From: Amphiscolops sp. MND2022
Taxonomy: Eukaryota
DNA length: 64,000 bases
NCBI GenBank assembly: GCA_964187785.1
Contig: OZ076417.1
Location: 29,698,001 to 29,762,000 of the forward strand
Direction of reading: 5' to 3'
The position numbers and the translations under genes are program-made. This document shows positions 33,515 through 64,000 of this stretch, piece after piece; the stretch's first letter is position 1, and each line of letters starts with the position of its first letter. A model generated the notes under the pieces. That model had not been told where the DNA came from, did not search any database, and saw nothing but the letters and a program-made list of their open reading frames with translations.

Positions 33515-34300
33515 TCACTCACACCTATGAAAGTTATCGTAACCTCCAAAAGCTCCTCCAAGTCCATGACAAACAATCTTACATTTTATACTTTTCATAT
33601 GAGCGGCGACCTCAATGAACTGACTCTACTCAAAACTCCTCCTTTCGACAAAACTCCCTCAAATCAGTTGTACGGTAAAATCTCCACTTGCTCATCTGTT
33701 CTCACCTTCGTTCTTTCTTCATCCTATTTGAATCCATCCATTTAATTTGTTTTGATTCGTTGAAAACCATCTTATGGTTTTCAACTCTTCATCCTCCCTA
33801 TCAAACGTTTGTTAAACAATTCACTTTCACTCCTACAAACCACTACCCTAGTTAAAAAGTCCCCTCTAGGGTAAAAAAAGTATGAAAAGATTTTTACTCG
33901 AAAAATGGTCAAAAACATGAAAAATTTTCCATTGCAGAATCGGTCTTTCCAGTTGTCACAAAAACATCCATCAATTTGAAAACACTTCATTTTGTTCCTC
34001 TCTTGACCATATCTTATCAGCTCGTTTACACTCTGCTATTAAATTATATTCCTGCCAACTTCTTCTCGTTTCCACTCCTTTTATCACTTTCTCAAAAGAA
34101 GCTATTTTATTCCGTTTGTTACCATTGGTATTGATAACAAACGTTTTGACAAAAACTTCAAGAATAGATAACTTTAAACTACTCACAACTAATATTTTGA
34201 AGAAATAATATTGAAACTTGAAATACTTTTATTGAAACTAGTTCAACATCTTTACCCAAATCATTGAAACATACTCAAAATTCACTTGAAACTGACACTA

Positions 34301-35131: not shown

Positions 35132-36263
35132 TACAAACACATATAGTTTCATAATTTTAATTGACCAAAAGTTTATTTCGTTTCAGTCACAAATTCAACT
35201 TCAATCTTCTATTTCTTCAAGAAATCTTTATTTTTCAGTAAATCGGGCCTTCTGCTGCTTCTCGCGACAACAGAGATTCTGTTAAATCATTCCCCATGCT
35301 GACCTCAGTGCTTGAATCCACAACCACATCTTCATGTTTTCAAATCCTACAGCAATCTTTTCTTCTCAAATGACGACATTTACTTCTGGCTCATCTTCGC
35401 AAACCTCTCCATCAACACTGCCATTGAACCTCCCGCTTCCACCTGTTGTACAGCCTCCTTACCTAGAATACACACACGCATCTTCCAATTTCCGTCTCTT
35501 GTTCCAACAATTTCACAATTACTGCCATGTCCAGATGTACAAAGATTGTTCCGTCAACTTCAGATGTACAAACCTCGTCATCCAGGAAAAAACCAGCCCC
35601 AATCAGGAGAAGCCGGTTCCTTCAGTCGCAAAAGTGTCGCCTACACTGTAGTATACAAACTTTTTCCAAGTAAAACAACGCTCTAAAACAATATAATTTT
35701 AATTATGTAAACTCTATTACATAAAGAGCTTAACTATTTAGATAAACTTGCGTCTAATCTCGCTGTTAACCCACCATCCGTCTTTCTCTGTGCTTCAAAA
35801 AATTGAATTCCAACTTACTTATTAATTGTGTGTTTTTGATTTAATACTTTAATCGCTGTTGCCAGACCAGTTCCATTCACAAATTTTCAAAACCCGGTCG
35901 GATGATATAATTACGACATTCACTTCAGTCTAGACATATACGCAATTCGTCAGGCAAATAAATGATTTTCAATTACTTTGGCAACCATAATAACTAATAA
36001 ATATGGCTATAGATCAGTAGTACACTTTAGCTATAAGCCACTTTGGGTTTGTACCTCAACTGAACGGACAATTTATTTTACATTGCGTAGTTGATCTCCC
36101 AGTATTCGAAGCCATGGAACGCTTGCCATGATCATGGTTAATCTTGCTAAATCATGGTTAACCGTACCATGGTACCCTTATCAAGATCATGGCAAATCAT
36201 GATTCATGGAACGCTTGCCAAGATCAATGATGCATTTTTTTTCATGTGATATTATACTAGTCT

Positions 36264-43600: not shown

Positions 43601-46600
43601 GTTTTTTTGATCTCTTGATTACAATTTTGGTGTTTCGGAAAAAATTTTTCCAACTTCTTTATAACCTCCCTTTCAAGTTTTATCCATATCATGGTAATTT
43701 TTTTCATGCAAATACACTTCAAGAAGCCCTTCTGATTTGGAACGGTCGCGATTAGTGAACGAAGAGTCGGAAACGTTGTTTTTTTTATTCGAAAAACCTT
43801 GTTTTTCGTTGGACCTCAAGTTTGACCAGACTTTAATGTTGGTGTTTCTTTTGGTTCTCATGTTTCTTTGAGAGATTTTTACTGTATTTTTTCATTTATA
43901 TAGCGCTACTAGAATGTACTGTTTTTTACTTGGCTAGCGCAGACTAGGAAATGGGTTTTTTCGCGCTCTTGATTACCTTTTTGGTGTATCGGAAAAATGT
44001 TCCTACTTCGTTAAAACATTTTTTTTCGGGTTTTATCTCTCTCACGGTGCTTTTTAAATGTAAATACACTTCAGGAAGCCCTTCTACTTTGCTACGATTT
44101 CGATTGCTGAGCTAAGAGTCAAAAAACGTTGTTTTTTTGTTGGAATAACCTTGTTTTTCGTTGGACCTCAAGTTTGATTCGACTTTAATGTTGGTGTTTC
44201 TTTTGGTTCTCATGTTTCTTTGAGCGATTTTTTACTGCAAATATTCGTTTATAGCGCAACTAGAGTGTACTGTTTCCTTTATTGACTAGCGCAGACTAAG
44301 AATTGGGTTTTTTGAGCTCTTGATTACATTTTTGGTGTATCGGAAAAAATGTTCCAACTCCTTTATAACCTCCCTTTCAAGTTTTATCCATATCACGGTG
44401 TTTTTTTCATGGAAATACACTTCAGAAAGCCCTTCTGATTTGGAACGGTCGCGATTGGTGAGCGAAGACTCGGAAATATTTTTTTTTCGAAAAACCTTGT
44501 TTTTCGTTGGACCAAGTTTGATCCGACCTAAATGTTGGTGTTTCTTCGGGTTTTCTAGTTTCTTTGGGGGGTTCTCAGTGTAGTTACTCGTTTATCGCGC
44601 TACTAGAATGTATCTAACTCACAATACTTTTTCACTATAAATACCCTCCCGGAAGCCTTTCTTATTCGATACGTTCGCAATTGGTTAGCGAAGACTCGAA
44701 AACAATGTTTTTTGTTGGAAAAACCGTATTCTTCATGGCACCTCAAGTTTGATCCGACTCTAATGTTGGTGCTTCTTCGTGTTTTCATGTTTCTTTTTTC
44801 ACTACAATTCCTCGTTTATCGCGCTACCAGAGTGTACTGTTTCTTACTTGGCTAGCGCAGACCAAAAGCTGTTTTTTTGAGCTCGTGATTACCTTTTTGT
44901 GATTCTGAAAAATATTCCATCTCTGTTTCAACCTCCCTTTCAAGTTTTATTTATTTTATGGTGCTTTTTTATGCAAAAAAACTTCAGGAAGCCCTTCTTA
45001 TTTGATACGGTAGCAATTGAATAGCGAAGAATGGCAAATATTGTTTTCTTTTTAAATGGAAAAACCTTGTTTTTCTTTGGACCTCAAGTTTAGTCTGACT
45101 TAAATATTTGTGTTTGTTTGGGTTTTCATGTTTCTTTAAGGGATTTTCACTGCAATTACTCGTTGATATCGCTATTAGAGTGTACTGTTTCTCAATTGTC
45201 TAGCGTAGAATAAAAACTGCGATTTTTACATCTCGTGATTTCATTTTTGGTGTATCTGGAAAACGTTACTACTTCGTTATAACCTATTTTTCAAGTTTTA
45301 TCTATCTCACAGTGCTTTTTTTCATGCAAATACACTTCAGGAAGCCCTTCCGATTTGCTACGGTCGCGATTGGTGAGCGAAGAGTCAAAAACGAGGTTTT
45401 TGCAACAAAAAAAAACATTGTTTTTCGTTGGACCTCATGTTTGATCCGATTTCAATGTTGGAGTTTGTTTGAGTTTTTATGTTTTTTGAGGGATTTCCAC
45501 TGCACTTACTCGTTGATATCGCTACTAGAATGTACTGTTTTTTATTTGTCTAGCGCAGAATAATAAATGCAATTTTTTCAGCTCGTGATAACATTTCTGG
45601 TGGATCTGAAAAGTGTTCCAACTTCGTTGTAACCTTTCTTTTAACCTTTCTATCTCACGGTGCTTTTTTCTTTGCAAATACACTTCAGGAAGCCCTTCTG
45701 ATTTGCTACGGTCGCGATTGGTGAGCGAAGAGTCAGAAACAATGTTTTTTTTTGTTGCAAAAACCTCGTTTTTTGTTGGACCTCATGTTTGATCAGACGG
45801 CAATGTTGGTGTTTCTTTTGCTTCTCATGTGTTTTGAGGGATTTTTACTGCAATTATTCGCTTATAGCGCTACTAGAGTGTACTGCTTCTTACCTGGCAA
45901 ACGCAGACTAAGAAATGGGTTTTTTTGAGCTCTTGATTACATTTTTGGTGTATCTGAAAAAAATTTCCAACTTCATTGTAACCTTTGTTTCAAATTTTAT
46001 CCATATCACTGTGGTTTTTTTCTTCGCAAATACACTTCGGGAAGCCCTTCTGATTTGCTACGGTCAGAATGGGTGAGCGAAGAGTCAAAATTGTTGTTTT
46101 TTCTGTTGGACGAACCTTGTTTTCCGTTGGACCTCAAGTTTGGTCCGACTTTAAAGTTGGTGTTTCTTTTGGTTCTCATGTTTCTGTGAGGGATTTTCAC
46201 TGCAATTATTCATTTATAGCGCTACTAGAATGTACTGTTTTTTAATTGGCTAGCGCAGACTAAGAAATGTTTTTTTTGAGCTCTTGATTACCTTTATGGT
46301 GTATCGGAAAAAATGTTCCTACTTCGTTATAACATTTTTTCGGGTTTTATCTATCTCACGGTGCTTTTTATATGCATATACACTTCAGAAGCCCTCCTAA
46401 TTTGCTATGATTTCGATTGCTGAGCGAAGAGTCAAAAAACGTTGTTTTTTCTGTTGGAAAAACCTTGTTTTCCGTTGGACCTCAAGTTTGATCCGACTTT
46501 AATTTTGGTGTTTCTTTCGGTTCTCATGTTTCTTTGAGGGATTTTCACTGCAATTATTCATTTATAGCGCTACTAGAATGTACTGTTTTTCACATGGCTA

Positions 46601-47450
46601 GCGCAGACTAAGAAATGTGTTTTTTTGAGATCTTGATTACCTTTATGGTGTATCGGAAAAAATGTTCCTACTTCGTTATAACATTTTTTTTCGGGTTTTA
46701 TCTATCTCAGGGTGCTTTTTAAATGCATATACACTTCAGAAGCCCTTCTAATTTGCTACGATTTCGATTGCTGAGCGAAGAGTCAAAAAACGTTTTTTTT
46801 CTGTTGGAAAAACCTTGTTTTTCGTTGGACCTCAAGTTTGATTCGACTTTATTGTTGGTGTTTCTTTTGGTTCTCATGTTTCTTTGAGCGAATTTCACTG
46901 CAATCATTCATTTATAGCGCTACTAGAATGTACTGTTTTTCACATGGCTAGCGCAGACTAAGAAATGTGTTTTTTTTTGAGATCTTGATTACCTTTATGG
47001 TGTATCGGAAAAAATGTTCCTACTTCTTTATAACATTTTTTTCGGGTTTTATCTATCTCACGGTGCTTTTTATATGCATATACACTTCAGAAGCCCTCCT
47101 ATTTTGCTATGATTTCGATTGCTGAGCGAAGAGTCAAAAAACGTTGTTTTTTCTGTTGGAAAAACCTTGTTTTCCGTTGGACCTCAAGTTTGATCCGACT
47201 TTAATATTGGTGTTTCTTTCGGTTCTCATGTTTCTTTGAGCGATTTTTACTGCAATTATTCGTTTATAGCGCAACTAGAGTGTACTGTTTCCTTTATTGA
47301 CAAGCGCAGACTAAGAAATGGGTTTTTTGAGCTCTTGATTACATTTTTGGTGTATCGGAAAAATTGTTCCTTTTTCGTTATAACATTTTTTCAAGTTTTA
47401 TCCATCTCATGGTTCTTTTTTCACTGCAAATACCTTTCAGGAAGCCGTAT
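40665..47450. repeat. Tandem satellite, ~20 monomers of ~350 bp (some ~400 bp or truncated)
   Basis: The anchor ctagcgcag recurs at ~40671, 41074, 41428, 41783, 42126, 42530, 42883, 43231, 43581, 43933, 44287, 44853, 45200, 45549, 45898, 46250, 46598, 46949 and 47301; gttggacctcaagtttga is conserved in each unit. Confidence 0.95.
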
Positions 47451-49012
47451 GTAGCCCTGTCAGAGTTGACCACTTCTCAATTGGCCAGCGACGACTGAAG
47501 AATGGGACTTTATTACATAACTTTATTTGATATTTTCAGTGTTTTTTTACATTATTTCAAGTGGTATTTTTAATTTTAATTTTCCTTTTTTGCAGCCGTT
47601 TTAGAGAAAAGGTTTGAGTGAGAAACAGTTTGAGGTTTGAGAAACAAAAATTATTCGATAGAATAGCGTCTAAAATCACCGTATTTTGGTAGAATAAGAT
47701 CTAAAAACACTATTGCACTAGAGTAACGTCTAAAATAACTTTTTTGAGAGAGATGGGATCATTTTGTTGCGAAAGGCTGAGGTTGAGAGTATGGAAATGG
47801 TATCATTCATCGCTCGAATGAATTTTTCTGATTAATAGGTTAGGAGCGACTTTTTTTCCAGAATTTCCTTTGGTGGAACAATGCAAATTTTGTAAGAGTT
47901 TTGTAAGATTTATGCATTTTTTGTACCATTTTCAGCTGAAAATCGCAAATTTTGCAAGAATCTTGTAAGAGTTAGTGTCAAATAATGCATTTTCTTACAA
48001 GAGTTTTTGTAAGAATTTTGCAAAAGATGTGAATTTTTTCAACTAGGGTATAAACGAGATTTGTTTAAAAGGAGGTTTGTAACTAATTTAGTTTTCATTT
48101 TGTTTGCTCTTATTATCGAATTCAGCAGTTGTACAACCAACGAACACAAAACTATGGAATCTGTCACAGTCCGCTCCCGGACTGGATTGCGGATGCAGGA
48201 GAGTTGGTTTTGGGCGCGGACATGGGTGCACCGCAAGACTCACGAAAAGGTATTTTGGCTATTAACTCAAACTCTAACTAAATTTAAATAAACTGTGACT
48301 TGAAACGCAATAATACTTTTGTCTAGCAAAGTCCCAAATAAACTAGTGAACGCATTCTAGATTTTTATGCTCTCGCAAAATTGGATGAAATAATACCGGA
48401 AATGTAAAATACACGTTTACCGCGCGCAAATTTGAGCGGAAATGAAATAAGGAAGCAAAATAATCCAAAAATGATTTCACGCATGTTTGTCTGGACGAGT
48501 CAACCACGACAAATGAAACATTCACAACCTGAAAATTAGAATAAAACTACCCCAAGATAAAAGGGACCATAAGCTAATCTAAATGGAAATACATCAAAAC
48601 TAATCCCGAAAAATTACATTTCATTTGGACCTAAAACAGGAAATTACAGGGAAACAACACACCGTGGTAGTTAAGCCTTTTCTTAGAAAGACAGCTTAAT
48701 TACTCTTTTGAACAGCAATTAAAGCGATTTAGGACGTCAATACTGCGCTGAGTAAACAATGCGGCGAAAGAAACGAGAGTACATGTATATTTGTCGTCAA
48801 TAAGACGCAGACAAGTTTGAAAGCATACCAATTGACGTCACTGCCTCGCATACGCGTACCAGAAAATCATTCCAATTATCCGCCTATACTGATAGCATTG
48901 CTAGAAATCATTCCAATTTACCGCCAGTGTGACGTCACTGCTCCGGTAGCTAGCGAGAGACTCATTTCTAAAATACTCGTCAGCATTGCGTCAAACTAGT
49001 CAAAATCTCTAT

Positions 49013-49110
49013 TCTGCCAAGAAAACTCGTCAACATGACGTTGACAAGTTTATGAAATTCAACTCTGCCAAGAAAACTCGTCAACATGACGTTGACAAGT
49101 TTATGAAATT
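49013..49110. repeat. 51-bp tandem duplication in LTR U3, each copy with the hairpin GTCAAC-atgac-GTTGAC
   Basis: tctgccaagaaaactcgtcaacatgacgttgacaagtttatgaaatt occurs at 49013 and 49064; the same duplication is in the 3' LTR (~62870-62965). Confidence 0.9.
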
Positions 49111-50088
49111 GAATAAAATGGATGAATTTGCTGAATTTAGTCAAGTTTTCATCGCATAAGTGCCGTTATTTTATAAGAAAGGGAAATTGCAGGCTGTTGC
49201 AAATCGTATAATGAACGTATTGCTGATTTTTACATGGTTTAAGGTCTTAATTTAGAATGCATTTTGATACAAGTGGAATAATTTAACCTCATGTTAAGCA
49301 ACTATCGTGTACTCTTAACAATAAGGGAATCTCCGTGCATAAACCATCTTATTACAAGATTCCACAGTAGATTAATTAGGAAGTCACAGTTTATTCTCCC
49401 CAACTAGAAGCTTATTATGTACCAGAAATGTATTTTTCATATACTTTGCATTTTTGTACTCCACAACATTGAGCGCTGTATTTGTGATTGTGTTCATGTT
49501 TTCTTATATCAATGCGACCAGTTGCTGCCCAGTTATACACGTTGTGTTGATGTTGCTATTTAACAAACGTTGCTGTTAATTTTATAAATCTTGTCGCATT
49601 TGACACGACTCGACAATGTTGCTAACAAATATTATTTTTATATCACAATTTTATTCTCACTTTCAGCAAAAGCTTGGGTCCAAATTCATAAAATATCGTC
49701 CTAGCATCGTTCAAATATTCCCATTTTGGAATTAGTCATAGCATTTTTGTCAAAGCGAAATTCAAAATCAGGTATTTTTTGTTCACGTCAGCGTCATCTC
49801 AGCGTCAATTTCCCGCGAACCAAAGCAGTAAAACAGGGAATCATTTCCGGTTTGACAGACTGAAGTAATATCTACTTCCTGCTTGGGAGGAAGCAAAAGG
49901 ACGCCGAGATGAAATGATATGATCAAACTTGATGACTAATACTGAATGAAGAACATCGTGTCTCAAAAATTGACGAAATGTCGACGTAAAATTGGGAACA
50001 AAATGATTTTTTCATCGAAAATACAGGAAATGACTAATTGTTCAAAGAAAATTAGGGCTTTGTTCGTGATCAAATGATGCTGGGAGGG

Positions 50089-50127
50089 TATAAATATGAT
50101 AGGATTTGATGATTAAGGGACTCAGTC
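50089..50127 (+). promoter_or_regulatory. Putative LTR core promoter: TATAAA plus TCAGTC initiator
   Basis: TATAAA at 50089-50094 and TCAGTC at 50122-50127, ~120 nt upstream of the gag ATG; both are also present in the 3' LTR. Confidence 0.5.
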
Positions 50128-50242
50128 TTTTGTAATTGCATGATTCAGTTGAATTTTCAATTCTACTCTCTCAACTTGTTCTACTTTGTCAGAAAATTCT
50201 TCGAAAGAAATTCAATTCTTCGAGATCAAACTTTTCTACAAA

Positions 50243-51679
50243 ATGTCAACAACAAGAAGCCAAAAAAGAAAGAACGATCAGCAAAGCACCGATGAGAACG
50301 TAAGTGAAGGCTTGATTTCACCTATAGTAGTAAGGGATTCTTGTCCTTTGAATCAGGATGATGAAGTAGCTGGGCCTTCTAGACCCAAATCCCCCCGGAT
50401 TGAGAATAGTTTTCTTGAAAGCTTGAGAGCTTCATTGAAGGAAGAAATAACGTCAGAAATTAAGAATCTTCTTATTGAATCTCAGAAGGAGATGTTGAAA
50501 CTCCTTAAGCCTGAAACAAAAGGGGTTATTAGAGAAAATATTGAAGAAGTAGAAGAGGAAACTAGAAGTTTTTACACTCCCACAAAATCAGTGAGAATAA
50601 GTTCTACTCAAAACGACCCGATGATATGTCGTAACATGGTGACAGGAGTCCTAACCGACTCCACAAACCAGCCAAAAAGAACAAAAGCCAGGTCTCAAAG
50701 TCAGCCGCCGTCAAAAGAACGTCCAGTAGCGGCAAGGACTCTATTTGCAACAGATAAAAACGATAGTACTACACTACCCATGCCCAAAGCACTCACGGCG
50801 TCACTCCCGACCTTCGACCGGAAGTCGGAAAAATTTGAACTATTCGAAGACCTTTTCCGGAACAACATAAAAATGTACCCACACCTTACTGAAATCCAGA
50901 AAATAAACTACTTCCACTCCCTCCTCAGGGGAGATGCCTTACAAGCATTTTGCAATATCGAAGATACGAAAAAAGATTCACTCGATGAGATCATGACAAT
51001 TTTCAAACGACGCTTTGGAGAATATTTGTCTATGGCCAAGGCAAGATGCGAATGGGACGCGCTCAAATTCGACCCCTCGAACCAGAAACTCCACGAATTT
51101 CTGGACATACTTCAAAAAACTGCCAAGGAAGCTTTTGGCTCTGAAGCCCAACAATTTATTGATAAAGCGATCTATGCAAAGATGCCAGACCACGTCAAGA
51201 AAATACTAAACAGGGCATACCTCGAGGATAAACCCTATAATGATATCGTACTCCACCTCGAACGCGAAATGAGACTTAACGGCTTAGGAGCGCCGGATGA
51301 GGTAACCCTAGTACCGCTAAACAAGGCAGAACCAGCCCCAGCAAAAACTGAGCCCAAACAAGTCGACAACACAACACAAAATGTCAAAAAAGGATATTGC
51401 TTCTACTGCAACAAATTCGGACACTATAAGGCAGAATGCAGAAAAATGAAAAGAGACAAATGGATGCAAACCAGGAAAAACAATGGTCAAACTAACTCTA
51501 GTGTAGGCAAATCGCTCGAATGCGAAACATGCGGCAAACCCCACAAAACGGAAGATTGTTGGAACGGAGCCAATTCTGCCAATGATCCACGACCTAAGCG
51601 TCACAACAATCCAGAATCAAAAAAGGACGTTCCCGTCCAACAAACGAAGGACAATGGTGCCACTGAGTCAAAAAACTAA
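50243..51679 (+). CDS. gag: Gag (478 aa from ATG 50243) with two Zn knuckles
   Basis: Open frame; CFYCNKFGHYKAEC (CX2CX4HX4C) and CETCGKPHKTEDC (CX2CX3HX4C); capsid-like LRGDALQAF..IFKRRFG region. Confidence 0.92.
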   Translation: MSTTRSQKRKNDQQSTDENVSEGLISPIVVRDSCPLNQDDEVAGPSRPKSPRIENSFLESLRASLKEEITSEIKNLLIESQKEMLKLLKPETKGVIRENIEEVEEETRSFYTPTKSVRISSTQNDPMICRNMVTGVLTDSTNQPKRTKARSQSQPPSKERPVAARTLFATDKNDSTTLPMPKALTASLPTFDRKSEKFELFEDLFRNNIKMYPHLTEIQKINYFHSLLRGDALQAFCNIEDTKKDSLDEIMTIFKRRFGEYLSMAKARCEWDALKFDPSNQKLHEFLDILQKTAKEAFGSEAQQFIDKAIYAKMPDHVKKILNRAYLEDKPYNDIVLHLEREMRLNGLGAPDEVTLVPLNKAEPAPAKTEPKQVDNTTQNVKKGYCFYCNKFGHYKAECRKMKRDKWMQTRKNNGQTNSSVGKSLECETCGKPHKTEDCWNGANSANDPRPKRHNNPESKKDVPVQQTKDNGATESKN

Positions 51680-51725
51680 TTACGCCGCGCCTGCGCTTCG
51701 GGGAAACAGTAGACGCGAGGGCGTA
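51670..51725 (+). promoter_or_regulatory. Putative -1 programmed ribosomal frameshift signal
   Basis: Slippery heptamer A-AAA-AAC (51670-51676) immediately before the gag TAA, then a GC stem TACGCC..GGCGTA (51681-51725). The pol frame is -1 and open back to 51667. Confidence 0.75.
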
Positions 51726-51729
51726 TTCA

Positions 51730-54700
51730 ATGAACGATCCCCCTACGACTTACACAAAAGATACAACAATAGAATGCGATGGAGCTCCAACAGAGGACTG
51801 GCTGAGACATCAGGCACTCGCCTCCATACGAAGACCCCTCATACAAACTGAAAAAGAGCAAACACTAGATGAGGACCATGGAGACGACCACAAACAACAC
51901 CCAAATCTCATACAGCCATCCACCACTAACACAACACGATCCACCGCAACCCAAATAGAACAAACTGAAAACGCCCACGAAGACCAACCACCGTCACCAC
52001 TAACAAAGGAAGATATTCACGGCTCCACCCAAGTACCTATCTTCCCAGAAGATTTCCCCGCATCTCTCAACTCTATTAAAGAGTATGTCACTGAAAAAGA
52101 CGGAGAAACATACTTACCCCTCCACTCGACTATAGTCCTCAAGAGCAGGAGGCGAATGCTATACTTGCCACTAGAATTCGGCGAAATAACAATGGATGGA
52201 CTTGTCGACTCAGGTGCGTTCATCAATGCCATGTCTTGGTCGGACTACAATGCGATCAAAATGAACAGTGACAACTGTGTCATAAAAGAGTATCCACAAC
52301 CTCCTTTCAAAATCGAATGCGCAAACGCTCAACTGGAGCAACCAATAGCCACGGCCGATATACAATTCAACATAGGAACGTATACCTTCACGGACACCTT
52401 CGTGATACTCTCAAAAACGTCCTTCCCAATAATCGGACTGAACTTCATGAGAAATCACCAAGCAGTAATCGACACAGCCAATGGGACCATCACCTTCCCC
52501 CATGTCGAAATGACCTTAGCCATGACAGATGAAAAGAAAAACTGTAACCCCAAACCACTCCAAATCATGACCGAAGGGAACCAGACACTGCCTCCACAAC
52601 AAACAACAACCGTAAACGCGATATTCATAACTACTAATACAATTGACATAACAGGAGCAGTACAACCGCTACCACAGTTTGACGAAACAGCAACCATCAT
52701 CGTTGCACCAGCACTAGCCACAGCTCACAACAAACGGATCAATTTACGAATAGCCAACTTGACAGATTTCCCTCACACCATAAAAAATCACACCAAATTG
52801 GCAGAATTGCAAATCCTGAGGCCAGAAGACACCAAACAGATACGACCCATAGACGTTGCAACGCTAACCACTCTACAAGACCCAGATGACACACACATGT
52901 ATGTGAACGAACTCATGAAATCCAGCGACAATGAACATAACGGTGAAAATTTCTGGTTCCCCACACCCGAGAACCCAGGAAACGAAGAAGAACATACACC
53001 GATACAACGAAGGATACTGAAAGAAATCCGCGAACTCATTCAAAAAGAAAAACTAGACCCAACCAAAGACCCAGAATCACGAAAGCATTTCCTGGACATG
53101 TTCCAGTGGGAAGGTTCTCAAATCGAAGGCAATGACAGGAAGCAACTCGAGCAAACAATAGTCGAATACAACGATATCTTTGCCCGACATCGCCTTGACA
53201 TCGGAATCAATAATAGCTTCAAAGTCAAATTAACTCCGAAAGACGAACGTCCAATTTACACACAAAGCTTGCCGGTACCAATTAACCTGAAAGAGGATCT
53301 AACAGTCGAATTAGCACTAATGCATAGGTACGGCATAATAACGACCCTACCATTCTCGAAATATGCAAGTCCAATTTTCGCACAAAGGAAGCCAAATGGC
53401 AAACTGCGTCTACTCGTCGACCTACGGAAAATAAACGCACTAATTTCAGACGATTATATCAACAACAACCACCCAGTCAGCACCCTGTCGGACGCAGCCC
53501 AACACTTAGCTGGGAAAAAGTTGTTCTGCAAACTAGATTGCTCCCAAGCATACCACTGCCTACAGATGGCAGACCAACGATCAATCGAAATGCTAGCCTT
53601 CAACTTCGCAAGTAGAACGTTCGCCTACAAACGCCTAGCACAAGGACTGAGCAGAGCCCTATCGGCATTTTCAAGTTTCATGCGAGAATACTTGGACAAA
53701 GTAATCAAAGCTGACCAATGTGCGCAATATGTGGATGACATCGGCATAGCTGCCAACTCCGTGACACAGCTGATACGAAACATCCGAGCCGTCTTCGAAT
53801 GCATCAGACAAGCAGGACTCAAACTATCCATTGACAAATGCCACTTTGGGGTGACTGAAGTCGAATTCCTTGGAAGGACGATCACCCCACAAGGAATCGC
53901 CCCCCAAGACCACAAGATACAGAAATTCTTAGCCAATGTGAGATTTCCAAAATCAAAGAAACAAGTACAGAGGTACATTGGCTTTGTCAACTATTATCGC
54001 AACTACATCCCGCGATTGTCCGAAAAATTGCTCGGATTTTACGAACTATTGAAAGCAGACAAGCAAATCAAAGTCACAGAAGAACTACTCGATCACTACA
54101 AAGCGATCAACGCAGCATTAGCGCAAGCCTGTGGATTAGCTCTCAAACAACCAATCACAGGACGACAGTATGTCCTGATGACGGACGCCAGCTTCCGAGC
54201 CTCTGGCTACGCCCTAATGATTGAGGAAGACAACGACAAAAAACTTAATTCAAAAAAGAAGACATTTGCACCAGTCGCATTCGGATCAAAGGTGTTCTCC
54301 CCAGCTCAAATCAAAATGTCAATCTACTGCAAGGAATTTCTAGCAATCTATCACGCCTTCCTTGAATACAGCCATATTCTATGGGAAACAACCCTACCAA
54401 CCCTTGTGATGACTGACAACAGATCGGTCACGCGTTTCTTCCAAACAAAAGCAATCCCGCCCACTCTGTGGAATGCATGTGATTATGTACTACAATTCAA
54501 TTTCCACATAATGCACGTGGCTGGTACACAGAATACAGCAGCTGATTTCCTATCGAGAATTGATCTCAACCCCAAGGAGAGAGTCGAATTAAAAATCAGA
54601 GAGGACATCACAATTCGTCCAATCCAAGTAAACCTACAGTCTACTGACGTCGCAGATGAAGAACAACTTTTCTTTCTTCCAGATGAAACGATTGAAACCG

Positions 54701-56592
54701 AAGAAGATATACTCCTGCAGAAGGAACAAGCAAGACAAAATGCGCGCGACGAAGAAACGACCAAACTTAAACTAGCTATCAAAGAAACTAACCCAATCCC
54801 AGTAAACAAAGCCTCCTACACCTTCGGCGCAATAAAAGAAGACGCACGCATCAGAGCCGAACAAGATTCAAATCTAGTTTTCAAAGCAATCAAAAAGAAA
54901 TTGATTTGTGAAGAATATGACAAACATCTCTTACAAACTGATCCGACAGCAAAACGTCTCCTCATCCACGAAAACAGACTAATTGTCAAAGATGGAATAT
55001 TAATGCGCAAATATTACGGCGAATGTGGCCAAGTCACCCACCACCAAATACTAATCCCTGAACACTTGGTTACAGAACTCCTGAAAACAATACATGGACA
55101 AATGGGAAAACACCCAGGAATTACAAAAATGATTCAAGAATGCCGATCAAAGTACTATTACCCCGGCCTAGCAAAAAGAATCAGACAATGGGTAATGCAA
55201 TGCGAAGACTGTATCAAATACAAACGGATTAACAATAGCCAAATCAGACCAAAAATGATCAACAATACGGAACATGTTCTCGGACCAGAAGATATCCTCG
55301 AAATCGACATACTACCGAACCTGCCAAACTCTGCAGGATATCAGAACATCGTCACAATGATAGACGTATTCTCAAGATATCTTTTTGCATACCCAACGCA
55401 GAACGTCACAGCGAAAACAATCGGACGATGTATCGTCGACGTCATGACAAGACACGCATACTTGCCAACACTGATACTATCAGACAAGGGCTCACAATTT
55501 CGATCAGAAGTCGTTACAGAAATAGCCCAGATACTCGAGATCCAAATCAGCCACGCATCCACGAAACATGCACAAACGATCGGAATCTTGGAAAGAACTC
55601 ATGCGTCAATCAATACTGCACTAAAAATTTCCACGGGCGAAAGACGTTCGATGTGGCATAAATACGTCCAAATAGCTGTAATGAACTACAATACAACATA
55701 CCATGAGACTCTGGGCTGCGAACCATCTACAGTATTCCACGGACGAATACCTTATAATGTCTTCGACCTAAAATTGGGGATCAAGCCAAAGTGGAAAACA
55801 ACGCCCAATTCGGACATAGCAGAGCAAATACAAAAACAAATAGACGAAGTACGAGCGACAGCGAAGGACAATATAATGTTATCCTACCTCAAATACAAAA
55901 AATATTACGACCGCAAAGCGTCCGCAGCTCCACTGAAAATCAACGATTATTGTTACATACTCAATCCGAAAGCCGACAATCAATCGACAAAATTTGCGTT
56001 CCAAGATTGCATTTGGACAGGACCGTACATAGTGATCAAAGTGCTTTCCAATAATAACTACACAATACGAAAGATTGGCACGAGATATACCCAAACACTG
56101 CATCGAATCAGAATACGACCTTATGTGACAGATCAACGAATACCCGACGTCACAGTACGGTCAAACGAATACCTACCAGATCCAGACGTTAAAGTATCAC
56201 ACAATGATTGGTATGCAGTCTCGTGGGAAATGGATTTCGGTAAACAAATCGACGAACTCGACACATCAAAAAATACGGAGACTGAACAAAGAACAGAAAT
56301 ACAAGAAGTGACAAGTACAGACGACAATACGATGCCACAAAAATTAACCGACAATACAGACGAAATGATACCACCGTCACCGGACTTTTCGAATCTCACT
56401 ACAGACGTAGGGGATAACCCATATATACGTCGCCCCCCACCCATTCAAAGTCCACCTATTCCCCCAAAATCTCCGCCTACAGTCGTCGGATATAATCCGA
56501 GAAAAACAGCGAAATATAATCTACGACCTAATCCTAAACCTAATGCTGACCCTGACTTTAGACGACTTGACGCAATAACTACGACTCACTAA
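51730..56592 (+). CDS. pol: Pol: aspartic protease, reverse transcriptase, RNase H, integrase (1620 aa from the first ATG; probably made as a Gag-Pol fusion)
   Basis: LVDSGA (52207), QYVDD (53728), LMTDAS..TDNRS (RNase H), H..MGKHPG..C..C, DILP..SDKGSQF..ERTH (DDE), WTGPY. No internal stops. Confidence 0.96.
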   Translation: MNDPPTTYTKDTTIECDGAPTEDWLRHQALASIRRPLIQTEKEQTLDEDHGDDHKQHPNLIQPSTTNTTRSTATQIEQTENAHEDQPPSPLTKEDIHGSTQVPIFPEDFPASLNSIKEYVTEKDGETYLPLHSTIVLKSRRRMLYLPLEFGEITMDGLVDSGAFINAMSWSDYNAIKMNSDNCVIKEYPQPPFKIECANAQLEQPIATADIQFNIGTYTFTDTFVILSKTSFPIIGLNFMRNHQAVIDTANGTITFPHVEMTLAMTDEKKNCNPKPLQIMTEGNQTLPPQQTTTVNAIFITTNTIDITGAVQPLPQFDETATIIVAPALATAHNKRINLRIANLTDFPHTIKNHTKLAELQILRPEDTKQIRPIDVATLTTLQDPDDTHMYVNELMKSSDNEHNGENFWFPTPENPGNEEEHTPIQRRILKEIRELIQKEKLDPTKDPESRKHFLDMFQWEGSQIEGNDRKQLEQTIVEYNDIFARHRLDIGINNSFKVKLTPKDERPIYTQSLPVPINLKEDLTVELALMHRYGIITTLPFSKYASPIFAQRKPNGKLRLLVDLRKINALISDDYINNNHPVSTLSDAAQHLAGKKLFCKLDCSQAYHCLQMADQRSIEMLAFNFASRTFAYKRLAQGLSRALSAFSSFMREYLDKVIKADQCAQYVDDIGIAANSVTQLIRNIRAVFECIRQAGLKLSIDKCHFGVTEVEFLGRTITPQGIAPQDHKIQKFLANVRFPKSKKQVQRYIGFVNYYRNYIPRLSEKLLGFYELLKADKQIKVTEELLDHYKAINAALAQACGLALKQPITGRQYVLMTDASFRASGYALMIEEDNDKKLNSKKKTFAPVAFGSKVFSPAQIKMSIYCKEFLAIYHAFLEYSHILWETTLPTLVMTDNRSVTRFFQTKAIPPTLWNACDYVLQFNFHIMHVAGTQNTAADFLSRIDLNPKERVELKIREDITIRPIQVNLQSTDVADEEQLFFLPDETIETEEDILLQKEQARQNARDEETTKLKLAIKETNPIPVNKASYTFGAIKEDARIRAEQDSNLVFKAIKKKLICEEYDKHLLQTDPTAKRLLIHENRLIVKDGILMRKYYGECGQVTHHQILIPEHLVTELLKTIHGQMGKHPGITKMIQECRSKYYYPGLAKRIRQWVMQCEDCIKYKRINNSQIRPKMINNTEHVLGPEDILEIDILPNLPNSAGYQNIVTMIDVFSRYLFAYPTQNVTAKTIGRCIVDVMTRHAYLPTLILSDKGSQFRSEVVTEIAQILEIQISHASTKHAQTIGILERTHASINTALKISTGERRSMWHKYVQIAVMNYNTTYHETLGCEPSTVFHGRIPYNVFDLKLGIKPKWKTTPNSDIAEQIQKQIDEVRATAKDNIMLSYLKYKKYYDRKASAAPLKINDYCYILNPKADNQSTKFAFQDCIWTGPYIVIKVLSNNNYTIRKIGTRYTQTLHRIRIRPYVTDQRIPDVTVRSNEYLPDPDVKVSHNDWYAVSWEMDFGKQIDELDTSKNTETEQRTEIQEVTSTDDNTMPQKLTDNTDEMIPPSPDFSNLTTDVGDNPYIRRPPPIQSPPIPPKSPPTVVGYNPRKTAKYNLRPNPKPNADPDFRRLDAITTTH

Positions 56593-56810
56593 AGATGAAA
56601 AGATAAACTCAGGAGTCCAGGCCGAACCGACCTGACAATTTTCAATTCACAGGCATACTACGACCTGACTAAATGTATTTTTCCTTTATCACTCCAAATG
56701 TCATACTTCAGTCTGTATTCAATAATATATCACAAAGAATAACAACAAAGATATAAAACAACAACTACACTTCATACTACTGAGTACACACTGAGTAAGA
56801 TAAAGAAGAT

Positions 56811-59800
56811 TCATTTTCTCTCTGAACCCCCAGCAATTCCCTTACTCGAAGACTGCCCCGACTTCTTCTTACTCTTCTTTGATGCAGGTTCTCCAGTCCC
56901 CTCAACACTCTTCTTACGACCAAGCAATGAGGCAATACTTCCGTACACCTTCGTCTTACTAGGGCGGACAGAACTAGATCCCCCCGACGAAGAGCATGGG
57001 GGTGCGGAAACAGATGAAGCTGCCGGACTTTCTGACTGTGAGGAACATCCACCTTCACCACCACTTTCCACACTGCGACTAGGATCAGCCACACCACAGG
57101 GTGATTCACAACTGTTGCTCCTTTTGCGACTGATACGATCATTGAATAAACGACGATAACGATCAACAAACGCAGACTGACTACCACTACACAAGCCGTC
57201 CCAAGGGTCAAAATCAGAGCACAACATAAAGGAACTAGCACTGGCAATTGACTTCCGAACTTCACCAATCGTAAACTTTGTAAAAAATGACCCCAGCTTG
57301 AACTCCGAAGACACAACACAACTCTGAACGCCCTGAATACACGTCGTGACAACAAGTTCAGGAACTGCGCAACCACTGCGATCTAAGTCTACTGCTGGAA
57401 ATGTCATTCGAGGCTTTGAGACAACCAAACAGCACAGTTTGAACACTCGACACAGTGACTTGCGAGCCAAAAAACTGTAATCGGATAGTAGATGATGGCG
57501 AACATCTTGGATAGCCTCAGCAATCCCTCCACTACTGACGTGTCGCGCTCGAGCATCAACAACAAACGTCGAATATTCTTCGGTAGCTGATTTTGACTCC
57601 AATGTAGAGATGACCCCACTCCGCTCTAACACACGGATCAACTTGCGAAACAACAATAACATATGATGGTCATCCCCCTCCAATAGCAACTCCGGACAGA
57701 AGGAGTAAATACCTTGCGGAAGATCTCCAGTAACAGACTGCTGCGACAAAATGACAGTGACAAGACGATCCATGAATTTACCACAGAGGCCCCGGAAAAC
57801 TTGAGATTCTCCACCTTTGTGACGACGAAGAACAGCGCCAAACTCATGGTTACACAGAAAATCGGCAGCAGCAACATTCTCATAAACTCTCAGCTTTGAC
57901 GGGTCCATATACTCCTCCCATGCATCCAGACTGGGAAGAGAACCGAGCTTGCGACTGCGTGACAACAAACAGTAGACAAATTGGCAAACTTCCATATACC
58001 CATGAAATCCGTAGTCCGGGCGACAAGCCAACTGTTTCTTGAACGAACACGAGTCTGAAACACAATATACCGACCAATAACCAGAGAAAAAACAGTGTTT
58101 TCCCCACCCACTTCGTGCACAAAGAAAATAACACATAACAAACACGCTACATGAAAACCCAAGGAAACTAGACACCAAAATCATACTCACGGAGTTCGAG
58201 GATATGCAAGTGCAGACCAAGACGCAATTCGCCAGTAGACTCAGAGTAGACTTGCCAATCAGTGCCACGCATCTGCAACACACAGACAACATTACTAAAG
58301 ACCCGTTCACAACCACATGAGCAATGAAGACTACATGAAAAACCACGACAATATAATAAAAAAAAAAAAGAGGAAAGAAAAACAAAGAATTTCTTACTCG
58401 GCCAGCTCCAGTCTTGAAATGTCGAGGACCTGTGTGTCTGACAAAATCCTGCACCGAGGACCACACGGCAATCAAGTCAGCAACGACAGCTTGCAAATCT
58501 ACGAAGTCGACACGGCCAGCAATGATGCAGCGACGAAGGTTGGGCACACTCTCACACCAGGACTCCTGCAGAGCACCTCGTAACCGAAGCATGAGATAAT
58601 CGACCATCGTAGTAGTCTCTAGGCCACCGAACACTTCTTGATGAGCAAGTCGGAAGCAATACAAAAATACTTCAGCGTCGAACTCCCGATACATGAGGAA
58701 CTCACGTCCATCCACTCGAGTATCGCTGAAAACCCGCAACAACGTCTGACTACCACCATGACAGGACAACGGCATCTGACATGAGGCAGTACTATCAATA
58801 ACGCGAGATAGTCCAGCTAACTCAGCTTCAGGAACTGCCCAACTGACTCCACCCTCACACAGACGCTCATCAACGTGTGGTCATCAAAAGTTTGAACAAA
58901 GCATTTGTGCAAACCATCCACCTCTGCAAAGAAGACACTGTATTCTCGAAAGGCACTAATCCGGGCAACGAGAGCGCGCAACACTCGTGGGAAGAGGGCT
59001 CCACAAATCAACGACTAAAACATAACAACGAATGCCCACTATATTCAAACAAAAGGGGAAAAGAAAGGAAAAACAACAAAAAAAAACAAAAAGGAGGACC
59101 AAACCCCCATCTGAATTAAAACCAAAACAAAAATACCAACCAATGACTCCGATCGGCTCCACTGTATGTTGTACAGAGGGTTCTCGGGTCCAAGAGTTGC
59201 ACGGAAACATCCCCACAACTTCCGCAAAAGGGTATAACTACCACCAAATCGCAACAGTTCGATCAAGCAATTAACCATCGTCATGAGGGGCACGCTCGAA
59301 TCGGGCTGGACACAAGCAGGAAGCAAATCTTCGGGGAAACTGAAGCCCTCATCTTTTCCTTTACTGGGACGATTGCGATACTCTTCCAACTGTGCATCAC
59401 TTAGAACCATGGGATCCATGAGGCGATTGTATACTGGCAAACCATTCTGCACACGATAAGTGACATCGAGTTGCCAGTGACGCTTCCCAAAAAAGTGCCG
59501 ACTAAACTCGGCAGCACCCCGCGACTCCATGGAAACGTCCCGCTGACAAATCATGCAGTGAAACAACTTGCTGGAGCCAGTACTTGAACCACTAACGAAA
59601 AGCTCATAGATGAGATTTCCAGTGACCATATCCCGTCGAAGATGATTTCGTGGGCTATACACACGTTTCCGACTGCGATCAGCACTTTCCAAGGTCGTCT
59701 CCATCCGATTGATCAATTCTTCAAAACCTGCAATAAACCAACTATCACATAACTAAGCACCACGAGACAAAACTATGGAAACAGACAGAAAAGACGAATC

Positions 59801-60837
59801 GCTCCAATTAGTTGATACACCAAATACAAGAATATACTCACGAGCAACGAAAGGGTCCAACGTGTGACTCTCTGCATCTGAAATGCCAGCCCTCGATATC
59901 TCACCAGGTTGCACAGCCTTGCTAGGCAACGCTGTAACCAATTCACACGTCTCGTCTGCGTCCAACAAACTGAATCTCACACTCGGCACGGCAACCCCCG
60001 TCCTATCCCTCAAGGAAGACTTCGAAACAGACTGGTCATCAGCCCCACCATCCTCAGGGACAATAAGCTGTACTAAAACAGAAAGAAACTTCTTCGCATC
60101 AGCTGAGACAACCACAACAATACAATCCCCCTACTTTTTTCTCTCTCACTCCCACGTATACACATAACAATTTAAAAAGTCATCAACAGACCAACTCACC
60201 ACGTTTATTCTTCGATGACACTCCTTCAGCCCCGCCGGTTGCTACTTCTTGTCGCAAGAATGACGAAAACCGTGGAGAAACAGTAGTCTGGCTACCCCCT
60301 GCTCCCTCCTTGAGAGGGGGGGGAGCCCCCTCACCTTCGTGAGCGACCGCAACAACAGCGGGAGCAGCAACCTTGATGATGTCAGCCAAGGGAACATCAG
60401 AATCACTAGAGCCATGCAAATCGAGAGAAGCAGGAGCAGGAACATCAACTGGAGAATCAGTAGCATGGTGCGTCGAATCAGCAAGAGGCACAAGAGAAAC
60501 TCCAGAGAGATCACCAGGAAGGGAAGCTCTGAGCACAGTGTCGGAAGTCCCAGCCAAGGGAGAAGAAAACGTCGGTCCTGGCAACAAATAAACATCCCAT
60601 AACGACGCGTCAGAAAATCTAAGCTGTGAAAGATGCAAACAGAAAAAGGCCAATCTGTAAATAGCATTAATTCACGGAAAGCTTAAAGGAATGGGGAACA
60701 ACAAACTCACCTGTTACAGGCCGACGAACAACGTCCGCATCACTCGGATAAATGTCTCCCTCAGAAAAGACAAACTGGGTTTCATTGCCGCTCTGAGCGC
60801 CGGTGTCAGGACGAAACCGGGGAGTTTCTTGATTCAT
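56811..60837 (-). CDS. Spliced antisense accessory gene, 7 exons (60837-60711, 60577-60200, 60072-59842, 59727-59141, 59014-58398, 58272-58191, 58054-56811); ~1088 aa BED-finger / inactive hAT-transposase-like protein; one 1-nt frameshift in exon 5
   Basis: Six GT-AG introns of 133, 127, 114, 126, 125 and 136 nt (donors GTGAGT x4, GTTGGT, GTAAGA), all phase-compatible; C-x2-C-x16-H-x5-H finger at 59477-59557. Confidence 0.75.
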
Positions 60838-60869
60838 CACAAATGGCAGGAATCTGAAAACAACAACCA

Positions 60870-61180
60870 AATTGACGTCATCATAACGGTGACAAAAGCA
60901 AAAGTTAGCTAAGCTAGCGAAATTGACGTCGGCATAACGTCGGCAAAAAGGTTATCTGGGTTAAGAAATTAATCTGATATCCTAAAATGACGTCATCATA
61001 ACGGTGACAAAAGCAAAAGTTAGCTAAGCTAGCGAAATTGACGTCGGCATAACGTCGGCAAAAAGGTTATCTGGGTTAAGAAATTAATCCGATATCCTAA
61101 AATGACGTCATCAAAACGGTGACAAAAATCAAAGTTAGCTAAGCTAGCGCAATGACGTCAACATAACGTTGACAAGCTCA
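60870..61180. repeat. 115-bp tandem repeat (~2.7 copies) built from TGACGTC-NN-CATAACG-NN-GNCAA modules; candidate bidirectional promoter
   Basis: tgacgtcatcataacgg occurs at 60873 and 60988, with a variant at 61103; it lies between the divergent starts at 60837 (-) and 61387 (+). Confidence 0.85.
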
Positions 61181-61386
61181 GCCGAACAAATTAATTTAAC
61201 CAACAACCAATAGAATTTGATGTCGACATATCGCCAACACCTGAAGATTAAAAAGGATTAAAATGACTGAACAGCCAATCAAAATGAAGGGATTTTTCCA
61301 ATAATTTCACTAATCCTAATCAATCCCGAAATTCATTGTGAAACAATCAAACTCGAAAAACAGCAGCCAAGAAATTTCGTCGCAGA

Positions 61387-62118
61387 ATGAACAATTTATT
61401 AGACATCTACGAACTGATCGACATCTCGTCATCAAGCGAGGAGGAGGGCGAAATAACAAGATCGTCCACCCCAATACCGAATGACAGTAGGGCCTATCCG
61501 AGTTTGGTCATCGAAATTCTGAACTCATCAGCAGAGGCGAACGCAGATGAAGAAGAATACCTCGACCTATCGGTAAATTCGCTAGAAACAGAATGCAAGA
61601 AAATGAAGCTGAGTGAGTCGTTCCCTAGTTTTGAAACTGTAGAATCGGGACAATACCCTCACTCTGAGTCGACCGAAGAAGTTATTGCTGACTCCCCGGA
61701 AAGCCCTGATGAAAGCTTGTCTTCGGACATATTCATAGTAGAAGCCCCAGCTGTACAAACCGAATCAGTAACAAGTAGCAAAGTAGCCGAATATCTGGAG
61801 AAGGTGCAACAAGAAGACGCCTCTTCATACTTTGTCACGCCCCCTGGTCCGCTGAGAAGAATAAATCTGCCGACTACTAGTCCTCTAAACGATCTGGAGG
61901 AGCCGAAATTAGCGCCAGACGAAGCCAAGGAAAACTACACCCGCGAAAATCAACTGCAACAGGCGTTCGACTTCTATCAACCCGGTAAAGCCGTTCGCCC
62001 CATGACAGTGGCCCTGTCACAGTCCGCTCCCGGACTGGATTGCGGATGCAGGAGAGTTGGTTTTGGGCGCGGACATGGGTGCACCGCAAGACTCACGAAA
62101 AGGTATTTTGGCTATTAA
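61387..62118 (+). CDS. Acidic Ser/Glu-rich, probably disordered 243-aa ORF extending ~100 nt into the 3' LTR
   Basis: ATG-initiated 729-nt open frame with coding-like composition (SSSSEEEG, DEEEY, SPESPDES); its last ~34 codons lie within the LTR. Confidence 0.55.
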   Translation: MNNLLDIYELIDISSSSEEEGEITRSSTPIPNDSRAYPSLVIEILNSSAEANADEEEYLDLSVNSLETECKKMKLSESFPSFETVESGQYPHSESTEEVIADSPESPDESLSSDIFIVEAPAVQTESVTSSKVAEYLEKVQQEDASSYFVTPPGPLRRINLPTTSPLNDLEEPKLAPDEAKENYTRENQLQQAFDFYQPGKAVRPMTVALSQSAPGLDCGCRRVGFGRGHGCTARLTKRYFGY

Positions 62119-64000
62119 CTCAAACTCTAACTAAATTTAAATAAACTGTGACTTGAAACGCAATAATACTTTTGTCTAGCAAAAATCCCAAATAAAACTA
62201 GTGAATGCGTTCTAGATTTTTATGCTCTCGCAAAATTGGATGAAATAATACCGGAAATGTAAAATACACGTTTACCGCGCGCAAATTTGAGCGGAAATGA
62301 AATAAGGAAGCAAAATAATCCAAAAATGATTTCACGCATGTTTGTCTGGACGAGTCAACCACGACAAATGAAACATTCACAACCTGAAAATTAGAATAAA
62401 ACTACCCCAAGATAAAAGAGACCATAAGCTAATCTAAATGGAAATACATCAAAACTAATCCCGAAAAATTACATTTCATTTGGACCTAAAACAGGAAATT
62501 ACAGGGAAACAACACACCGTGGTAGTTAAGCCTTTTCTTAGAAAGACAGCTTAATTACTCTTTTGAACAGCAATTAAAGCGATTTAGGACGTCAATACTG
62601 CGCTGAGTAAACAATGCGGCGAAAGAAACAAGAGTACATGTATAATTGTCGTCAGAAAGACGCAGACAAGTTTGAAGGCATACCAATTGACGTCACTGCC
62701 TCGCATACGCATACCAGAAAATCATTCCAATTATCCGCCTATACTAATAGCATTGCTAGAAATCATTCCAATTTACCGCCACTGTGACGTCACTGCTCCG
62801 GTAGCTAGCGAGAGACTCATTTCTAAAATACTCGGCAGCGTTGCGTCAAACTAGTCAAAATCTCTACTCTGCCAAGAAAACTCGTCAACATGACGTTGAC
62901 AAGTTTATGAAATTCAACTCTGCCAAGAAAACTCGTCAACATGACGTTGACAAGTTTATGAAATTGAATAAAATGGATGAATTTGCTGAATTTAGTCAAG
63001 TTTTCATCGCGTAAAAGCCGTTGTTTCTTAAGGAAAGGAAATTGCAGACTGTTGCAAATTGTATAATGAACGTATTGTCGATTTTTTATGGTTTAAGGTC
63101 TCAACTTAGAATGCGTTCTGACACATGTAGGATAATCTCAACCTCACGTTAAGTAACAACCATGTATCCTTAACAAGAAGGGAACTTCCGCGCATGAACC
63201 ATCTTATTACAAGATTCCACAGTAAATTAATTAGGAAGTCACAGTTTATTCTCTCCAACTAGAAGCTTATTATGTACCAGAAATGTATTTTTCATATGTT
63301 TTGCATTTTCGTATTCCACAACATTGAGCGCTGTATTTGTGATTGTGTCCATATTTTCCTATATCAGTGCATCCAGCTGTTGTTCAGTTATTTATATTGT
63401 GTTGATGTTGCTATTTAACAAACGTTGCTGTTAATTTTATAAATCTTGTCGCATTTAACGCGACATGACAAGGTTGCTAACAAAGTATTATTTTCATATC
63501 GCGATTTCATTCTCATCTCTATCAAAGGATTGAGCCCAAATTCATAAAATATCGTCTCAGCGTCGTTTAAATATTCTTATTTTGGAATTAGTCATAGCAT
63601 TTTTACCAAAGCGAAATTCAAAATCAGGTATTTTTTGTTCACGTCAGCGTCATCTCAGCGTCAATTTCCCGCGAACCAAAGCAGTAAAACAGGGAAGCAT
63701 TTCCGGTTTGACAGACTGAAGTAATATCTACTTCCTGCTTGGGAGGAAGCAAAAGGACGCCGAGATGAAATGATATGATCAAACTTGATGACTAATACTA
63801 AATGAAGAACATCGTGTCTCAAAAATTGACGAAACGTCGACGTAAAATTGGGAACAAAATGATTTTTTCATCGGAAATACAGGAAATGACTAATTGTTCA
63901 AGGAAAATTAGGGCTTTGTTCGTGATCAAATGATGCTGGGAGGGTATAAATATGATAGGATTTGATGATTGAGGGACTCAGTCTTTTGCAATTGTACAAT
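62015..64000 (+). repeat. 3' LTR (truncated by the window end)
   Basis: Direct repeat of 48162-50140, starting TGTCACAG. Confidence 0.92.

Follow-up and report, generated by a model that had tools for sequence, protein, structure and literature searches.

The closest described systems are found among the Retand, Grande and RIRE2 retrotransposons, Ty3/gypsy elements of plants that have a long region between pol and the 3' LTR (2.9-6.6 kb in Retand). In this region lie a conserved ORF in antisense, whose product probably binds nucleic acids, and a tandem array (PMC11963269, PMC7264820). In maize Grande, the antisense gene, gene23, has its own promoter upstream (PMC7264820). The Retand arrays are family-specific, with a function given as unknown (PMC11963269), and the roles and origins of the antisense accessory ORFs and of the adjoining arrays are also stated to be unknown (PMC7264820, PMC11963269). 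In the Oikopleura elements Tor3b and Tor4b, env is driven by an internal promoter (PMC4402516); Cer1 encodes an RNA-export protein, CERV (PMC10309623); and bdelloid elements have captured varied sense ORF3s, where the main text of the account mentions no transposase (PMC5408684).

A retrotransposon with a Retand/Grande-like layout

The array considered here lies in an LTR retrotransposon of 15.8 kb at the right end of the window, i.e., the whole stretch of 64,000 nucleotides that was analysed (Table 1). The two direct repeats, each of about 1.98 kb, are 94.6% identical over 1,982 columns when 48161-50138 is aligned with 62014-63994. With these long terminal repeats, a gag with CCHC and a pol in the order PR-RT-RH-IN, the element is a member of the Ty3/gypsy group; Pfam gives the gag-pol domain order of Ty3/gypsy, and the best PDB sequence match is Ty3 Gag-Pol (E 1.9e-45). 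In layout it is Retand/Grande-like, since the region from pol to the 3' LTR measures 5.4 kb and contains, besides the array, one antisense gene and one sense ORF. TRP28 (PF04195), the test for Retand, is absent from the ORFs of the window, from 72 and 57 aligned members and from P0443, a relative of the antisense protein. Unlike Retand, the element has an antisense gene with seven inferred exons and hAT-like features, and a second conserved ORF, in sense direction, which points away from the antisense gene. Furthermore, the motif of the array recurs in the LTR, which is not reported for Retand in those parts of the two accounts that were considered (PMC11963269, PMC7264820). The element resembles Tor in being an animal element of Ty3/gypsy type, with a candidate internal promoter where the third gene of Tor is under an internal promoter, but that gene encodes a sense env glycoprotein, while here there are an acidic low-complexity ORF and a spliced antisense gene. 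Literature searches among open-access papers gave no description of this combination of features.

Table 1. Positions of the element's parts, its regulatory candidates and its accessory genes in the window
Feature	Position	Strand	Remarks
5' LTR	48162..50141	+	right end not fixed
LTR CRE octamers (48833, 48930) and AGCTAGCGA word (48948)	48826..48956	+	all found in array too
51-bp tandem of 5' LTR	49008..49110	+	shared site at 49028 and 49079
gag with CCHC	50153-51679	+	open
pol, order PR-RT-RH-IN	51667-56592	+	open
Antisense accessory gene, hAT-transposase-like	56811..60837	-	seven inferred exons
Antisense exons	60837-60711, 60577-60200, 60072-59842, 59727-59141, 59014-58398, 58272-58191, 58054-56811	-	splice-site reading
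C2H2 finger, C-x2-C-x16-H-x5-H	59477..59557	-	
Splice-acceptor-like site	60838..60870	-	AG ending 60854, 16 nt upstream of antisense ATG; putative, by likeness to other acceptors of the gene
Tandem array, 2.6 x 115 bp	~60869..61176	+	six modules; four hairpins per unit on +
Array module matching LTR site at 20/21 nt	61156..61176	+	arms form a perfect inverted repeat
Degenerate seventh module	61213..61241		start 61218, 65 bp past sixth
Candidate internal promoter core	61246..61345		AGCCAATCA at 61273-61281 inside imperfect inverted repeat (arms 61246-61260, 61311-61325)
Sense accessory ORF, 243 aa	61387..62118	+	acidic, serine-rich, N-terminal SIM-like motif
3' LTR	62015..64000	+	may run past window edge
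51-bp tandem of 3' LTR	62858..62965	+	shared site at 62883 and 62934

By eye, the stretch from 50141 to the gag ATG shows no tRNA primer site of the TGG type, the right end of the LTR not being fixed, and upstream of 62015 no clear purine run is seen by eye as a polypurine tract. The 3' end, where one half of a target-site duplication would be expected, lies at the window edge. A 10-nt stretch in 50141-50245 is, again by eye, complementary to the junction of the 51-bp tandem of the LTR, which is a weak hint of Tf1-like self-priming. Near the tandem and the end of the LTR there are an AATAAA just after the tandem, two TATAAA words and an initiator-like TCAGT (49112, 49583, 50089 and 50122), and these words lead to mutually conflicting U3/R/U5 layouts; the U3 in which the LTR motif had been placed is a putative one. 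A consensus splice donor, GTAAGT, is found at 50300 on the plus strand, 57 nt inside gag. The differences between the LTRs are uneven, with 79 of the 110 differing columns within 49163-49762, though gag and pol are fully open. Recombination or conversion of an LTR would account for this better than a high age of the element. The plus strand is rich in A and C over 50142-62015, across sense and antisense genes alike; this is a bias of the strand that runs through the whole element, whatever the direction of coding. Directly left of the element there are about 19 copies of a satellite of about 350 bp (40840-47446). Flanks rich in satellites, together with introns of the spliceosomal type, would indicate a eukaryotic host, probably an invertebrate. 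Elsewhere in the window the GC skew is mirror-imaged at 9000-14000 and 28000-36000 (up to +0.45 and -0.49); no Pfam family is matched by the open frames in these stretches, and a 500-bp duplication (10496-11501) lies within the skew.

The array and the site it shares with the LTRs

The array is built from units with a period of 115 bp (60869-61169, 2.6 copies, 94% matches), as had been predicted, and its modules start at 60873, 60924, 60988, 61039, 61103 and 61153. In each module a TGACGTC overlaps the left arm of a 17-bp quasi-palindrome with 6-bp arms, a 5-bp centre and nearly fixed outer bases. The original prediction had about six copies of the pattern TGACGTC-NN-CATAACG-NN-GNCAA; six modules are indeed found and five of them follow it exactly, but the module at 61103 has AAAAC for ATAAC. 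Instead of the expected sub-period of about 57 bp, the module spacing alternates (51/64/51/64/50). Because the 115-bp units are 94% alike, there are only some three or four independent variants among the six modules. The seventh module can form its hairpin on the minus strand but not on the plus strand.

The predicted match of 20 of 21 nt between the last array module and an LTR motif is confirmed, with one mismatch, at each of the four LTR sites in Table 1. It is far beyond chance. With one mismatch allowed, the longest match between array and LTR measures 21 nt. None of 300 dinucleotide-shuffled LTRs reaches 18 nt, the maximum being 17 nt; 17 nt is likewise the limit for 155 real 380-bp tiles taken from the rest of the window, and 14 nt when the array is compared with 29 real 2-kb tiles. 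When a matrix is made from the other three array variants, leaving out the 20/21 copy, the four LTR sites are top-ranked outside the array, with 19.7 bits against 17.6 for the next position. A degenerate 20-mer, which was fitted to these same sites, has ten matches in the 64 kb with at most two mismatches, all ten in the array or the LTRs and all on the plus strand, and none in 100 shuffles. Degenerate relatives of the site occur in the 5' LTR at 48795 and 48978, and in the one at 48795 the outer bases and the tail are preserved, although no hairpin is possible.

The flanks of the 21-mer and the spacers differ between array and LTR, and the module spacing is 50-51 bp in both, an agreement that depends on one shared value. 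From the same spacing, in spite of unlike flanks and spacers, follows that conservation is at the level of the site and not of the block. Outside the 21-mer, two further words recur in both array and LTR, one of 11 nt that surrounds the CRE and one of 9 nt, AGCTAGCGA, near the second CRE; they are given here as plain observations.

A mostly neutral origin of the array must be weighed at this point. A short piece copied from the LTR by template switch or conversion could have seeded a tandem amplification, or the hAT transposon that brought the antisense gene could have left its subterminal repeats as the array, and the CCAAT block to the right would then alone be the promoter. In Retand, such arrays are a common feature of the region that separates pol from the 3' LTR, and they are specific to the family (PMC11963269); hAT subterminal repeats adjoin the transposase gene (PMC10368747); the 94% likeness of the units implies recent amplification, and the clustering of LTR differences described above implies that the element recombines. 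Such an origin is nevertheless improbable, in that array and LTR share the motif alone, without flanks or spacers, that the diverged array variants keep outer bases, centre and pairing, that each unit has four different hairpins, and that three types of word are common with the LTR. Against the transposon version it also counts that, among the 25 longest of 40 inverted repeat pairs, none brackets the antisense gene, although old ends may have decayed.

CRE-like sites had been expected in both regions, and they are present in both: TGACGTCA occurs four times in the array, twice in each LTR (48833, 48930, 62688 and 62785) and once in the 48-kb flank. TGACGTC is enriched, with 28 occurrences against 6.0 expected, and a bZIP-type input at the octamers is a candidate. 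Of the six modules only four have the full octamer. In the LTRs, the shared site lacks the TGA in front of it and therefore contains no CRE. In the array the CRE overlaps the shared site, while in the LTR it lies 100-200 bp away, from which follows that there are two signals and not one. A single factor for the whole array and the LTR, as originally proposed, does not fit this separation. In its strict form, where one bZIP/CREB-type protein binds everything, the 21-mer is a pair of CRE half-sites and start sites flank the array directly, the proposal is very improbable: it draws on the enrichment of TGACGTC and on the CGTCA and TGACG that lie three bases apart in the LTR site, but the six array modules all have TAACG or AAACG as their second half-site, the right arm and the CAA tail are conserved outside any CRE, and left of the array there is an acceptor-like site rather than an evident core promoter.

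The LTR of HTLV-1 has 21-bp repeats with a CRE core. Tax and HBZ of this virus serve as a working analogy only, on account of the CRE repeats, the element-encoded nuclear regulator and the antisense gene; here, unlike in HTLV-1, the site is also internal and can be separated from the CRE, and no sequence kinship is expected. The antisense gene of HTLV-1 and its promoter are mentioned in two of the accounts cited (PMC7264820, PMC11963269).

A candidate internal control region, read as DNA or as RNA

Our preferred reading, to which we assign a probability of about 0.45, is that the array works as an enhancer at the DNA level within an internal control region, with inputs from a host bZIP factor and from a second factor, both in common with the LTR. 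The array would be the enhancer part of this region and act as double-stranded DNA, with the CREs bound by the host bZIP factor and the 20-bp quasi-palindromic site by the second, probably dimeric, factor. The LTR would hold the same two types of site in another arrangement, and it is proposed from this that common inputs govern both the accessory genes and the genomic transcript. That CRE and shared site overlap in the array and are separate in the LTR would be expected from the turnover of sites in enhancers. The CCAAT block would be the promoter core of the sense ORF and probably fire leftwards as well, and from the leftward antisense RNA the array would then be spliced out at the 60854 acceptor. 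Promoter and enhancer activity, bidirectionality and splicing are in this scheme predictions from the DNA.

The word AGCCAATCA in the block is one that we take to be an NF-Y-type CCAAT consensus. The DNA upstream of the ORF in relatives was read through spurious N-terminal extensions made by the gene caller, which 15 of 120 sense-ORF homologues have. All seven extensions of at least 36 aa agree with the translated sequence of 61265-61340, as none of 500 shuffles does in any case; three of the seven span the CCAAT box, the frames vary, and the identity of the ORFs is 52-69%. Shorter extensions, which cover just about 60 nt upstream of the ATG, match in none of eight cases. The matches show 61265-61340 to be a non-coding block conserved in diverged relatives, and this conservation, which concerns the CCAAT block and not the array itself, supports an internal promoter.

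On the left side of the array a start site had been placed near 60880, where instead the splice-acceptor-like site at 60854 is found. No GTRAG donor occurs from this acceptor up to 61661, and the first ones are at 61662 and 62096. The donor at 62096 is a GTGAGT consensus on the minus strand of the 3' LTR and faces the antisense gene. Since the acceptor-like AG has no nearer donor, the array may lie, as far as the antisense RNA is concerned, within an intron or an outron. In an acoel, spliced-leader trans-splicing affects 30.2% of the genes, and it is common in some invertebrates (PMC9911081).

The folding of the array, which had no part in the original prediction, depends strongly on the strand. 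Single units fold with z values of -4.1 and -4.8 on the plus strand, and of -0.4 and -0.9 on the minus strand (200 shuffles), and of 137 plus-strand windows taken over the element, the two with the lowest values lie within the array. This could mean that the array acts as structured RNA in the plus-strand genomic transcript, where a repeated unit of four hairpins serves export, packaging or stability, and where the same hairpin, with a 6-bp stem and a 5-nt loop, recurs in the LTR part of the RNA and is read by the element's finger protein or a host protein. CTE and RRE are RNA export elements. The array resembles them as a structured repeat between pol and the 3' LTR, unlike them in having no Rfam match, and it is a candidate for export by analogy. 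The model would be a protein made from spliced RNA that acts on genomic RNA, as with CTE, RRE or CERV, and for an export protein encoded by the element itself Cer1 provides the precedent (PMC10309623).

We consider this RNA reading doubtful, though a strong rival, and the pairing evidence is divided. All six modules pair at 6/6 positions on the plus strand, where variants differ by a double change that replaces A-U by G-C, and a T-to-C difference between units turns a G.U pair into G-C in a GAAA-capped hairpin; all ten sites have the same orientation. When stems are counted in a strand-symmetric way, five G.T and no A.C occur in the four stems of unit 1 that do not overlap, where the background share of G.T is 0.345 in the element interior (p 0.005 for unit 1) and 0.504 in the flank control. 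When the seventh module is included, which has three A.C on the plus strand, the count becomes 6/9 and p rises to 0.05; an alternative register of hairpin 1 has two A.C, and the third partial unit and the seventh copy together have two G.T against eight A.C. The extended LTR stem has A.C on the plus strand and folds equally well or better on the minus strand, as the LTR tandem also folds better there. Rfam gives no match in 47500-64000 (one row, E 0.81), and none for the array and LTR sites at E up to 1. Because the units are near-identical, there are few independent changes.

For the reading as DNA count the confinement of the shared site to array and LTRs, its high rank when the 20/21 copy is left out, the conserved CCAAT block, the TGAC upstream of the stem, which is unpaired in the RNA fold and yet kept in 6/6 modules, and the LTR copy at 48795, which cannot pair; Grande gene23, Tor env and the Hermes BED domain are precedents. 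Against it count the folding on the plus strand only and the restriction of non-Watson-Crick pairs in the four main stems to G.U, which a DNA enhancer leaves unexplained, and also the likeness of the finger to RNA-binding fingers and the family-specific nature of the Retand arrays. The asymmetry between strands could also come from the keeping of an unstructured minus-strand leader, or from A-to-G biased mutation. The DNA and RNA readings are not mutually exclusive.

The accessory genes and a candidate circuit

The divergent genes that had been placed on the two sides of the array are indeed there, and both belong to conserved families (112-170 homologues). The last antisense exon has 112 homologues (8,000 candidates scored), the finger exon 170/233 and the sense ORF 147/535. 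A profile search gives 874 representatives, and the homologues belong to no named family. For the antisense gene, exons 1-3 are defined by splice signals only, the splice phases are compatible save in exon 5, and the frame of this copy is broken between 58880 and 58820. The similarity of the homologues stops at the predicted donor of exon 4. Exons 4 to 7 are collinear with P0443, a relative of 890 aa without interruption (E 1.7e-24, 2.9e-10 and 6.7e-29).

The four ligands of the finger are kept in 56, 55, 53 and 56 of 57 aligned sequences. The label of a BED protein, which the gene had been given, is not upheld: zf-BED matches none of the 57 finger homologues, and in a structure search with Foldseek the ZBED1 BED (E 3.1) stands amid fingers of matrin type (E 2.4-4.1). 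The nearest leads are matrin/U1-type fingers. At the level of a lead, the finger resembles these RNA-binding fingers at least as much as BED.

Weak but concordant signals make the antisense gene hAT-transposase-like. As in hAT/Hermes and ZBED/FAM200/DUF4371 proteins, an N-terminal C2H2 finger is followed by a collinear body of about 800 aa; the last exon aligns to Hermes residues 368-568 with a low structural score; and for P0443, 8 of the 10 listed Atlas rows have ZBED/FAM200/DUF4371/DUF659/hAT-dimer families (scores 0.79-0.83, lead level only). Unlike hAT elements, the gene has no sequence match in Pfam or PDB, which is also the case for P0443, no zf-BED match and no terminal inverted repeats among the 25 longest of 40 inverted repeat pairs, and it lies in antisense inside an LTR retrotransposon. 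In the putative RNase H-like core, where hAT transposases have a DDE triad, the first strand is seen by eye to lack the usual Asp, in this copy and in P0443. The BED domain of Hermes binds cooperatively to a 17-bp quasi-palindromic pair of repeats (PMC10368747). The ancestry of the finger protein, its adjacency to the array and the restriction of the 20-bp site to the element suggest that this protein itself may read the site, as DNA or RNA; taken by itself this is rather unlikely, and a host factor is about as likely a binder.

The last ~100 nt of the sense ORF are inside the 3' LTR, and the first ~100 nt of this LTR encode a C-terminal Cys/Gly-Arg-Gly-His-Gly motif that is conserved in the family. 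The N-terminal motif of the ORF is SIM-like, and the protein is a candidate anti-silencing or SUMO-decoy protein. When contigs are compared by size, 30 of the 118 sizes among the listed sense-ORF matches recur among the antisense-exon matches, an indirect sign that the two genes travel together.

Of the co-regulation of LTR and internal promoter that was originally put forward, the divergent conserved genes, the CCAAT block, the motif shared with the LTR, the conserved C2H2 finger and the weak hAT signals stand, while the one factor, the BED label and the start near 60880 find no support in the form given. A wider conjecture is that an LTR retrotransposon took over a hAT transposase gene, in antisense and with its introns kept, as sequence-specific regulator of its own quasi-palindromic site, in LTR and internal promoter alike, or of the corresponding RNA hairpin, with the divergently expressed, SIM-bearing acidic protein as partner or anti-silencing factor. 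The odds are against this conjecture, but if it is true, the element has a self-contained circuit of two proteins and a target, built from a part of a class II transposon. The DNA site and the plus-strand hairpin lead to two opposed predictions, and the accessory-gene clusters are large (up to 166 and 173 near-identical members), so that the data for a family-wide alignment exist. For the antisense accessory ORFs and tandem arrays of such retrotransposons, the element offers a candidate origin, a hAT transposase, and a candidate target, a 20-bp site that occurs in the array and the LTRs only.
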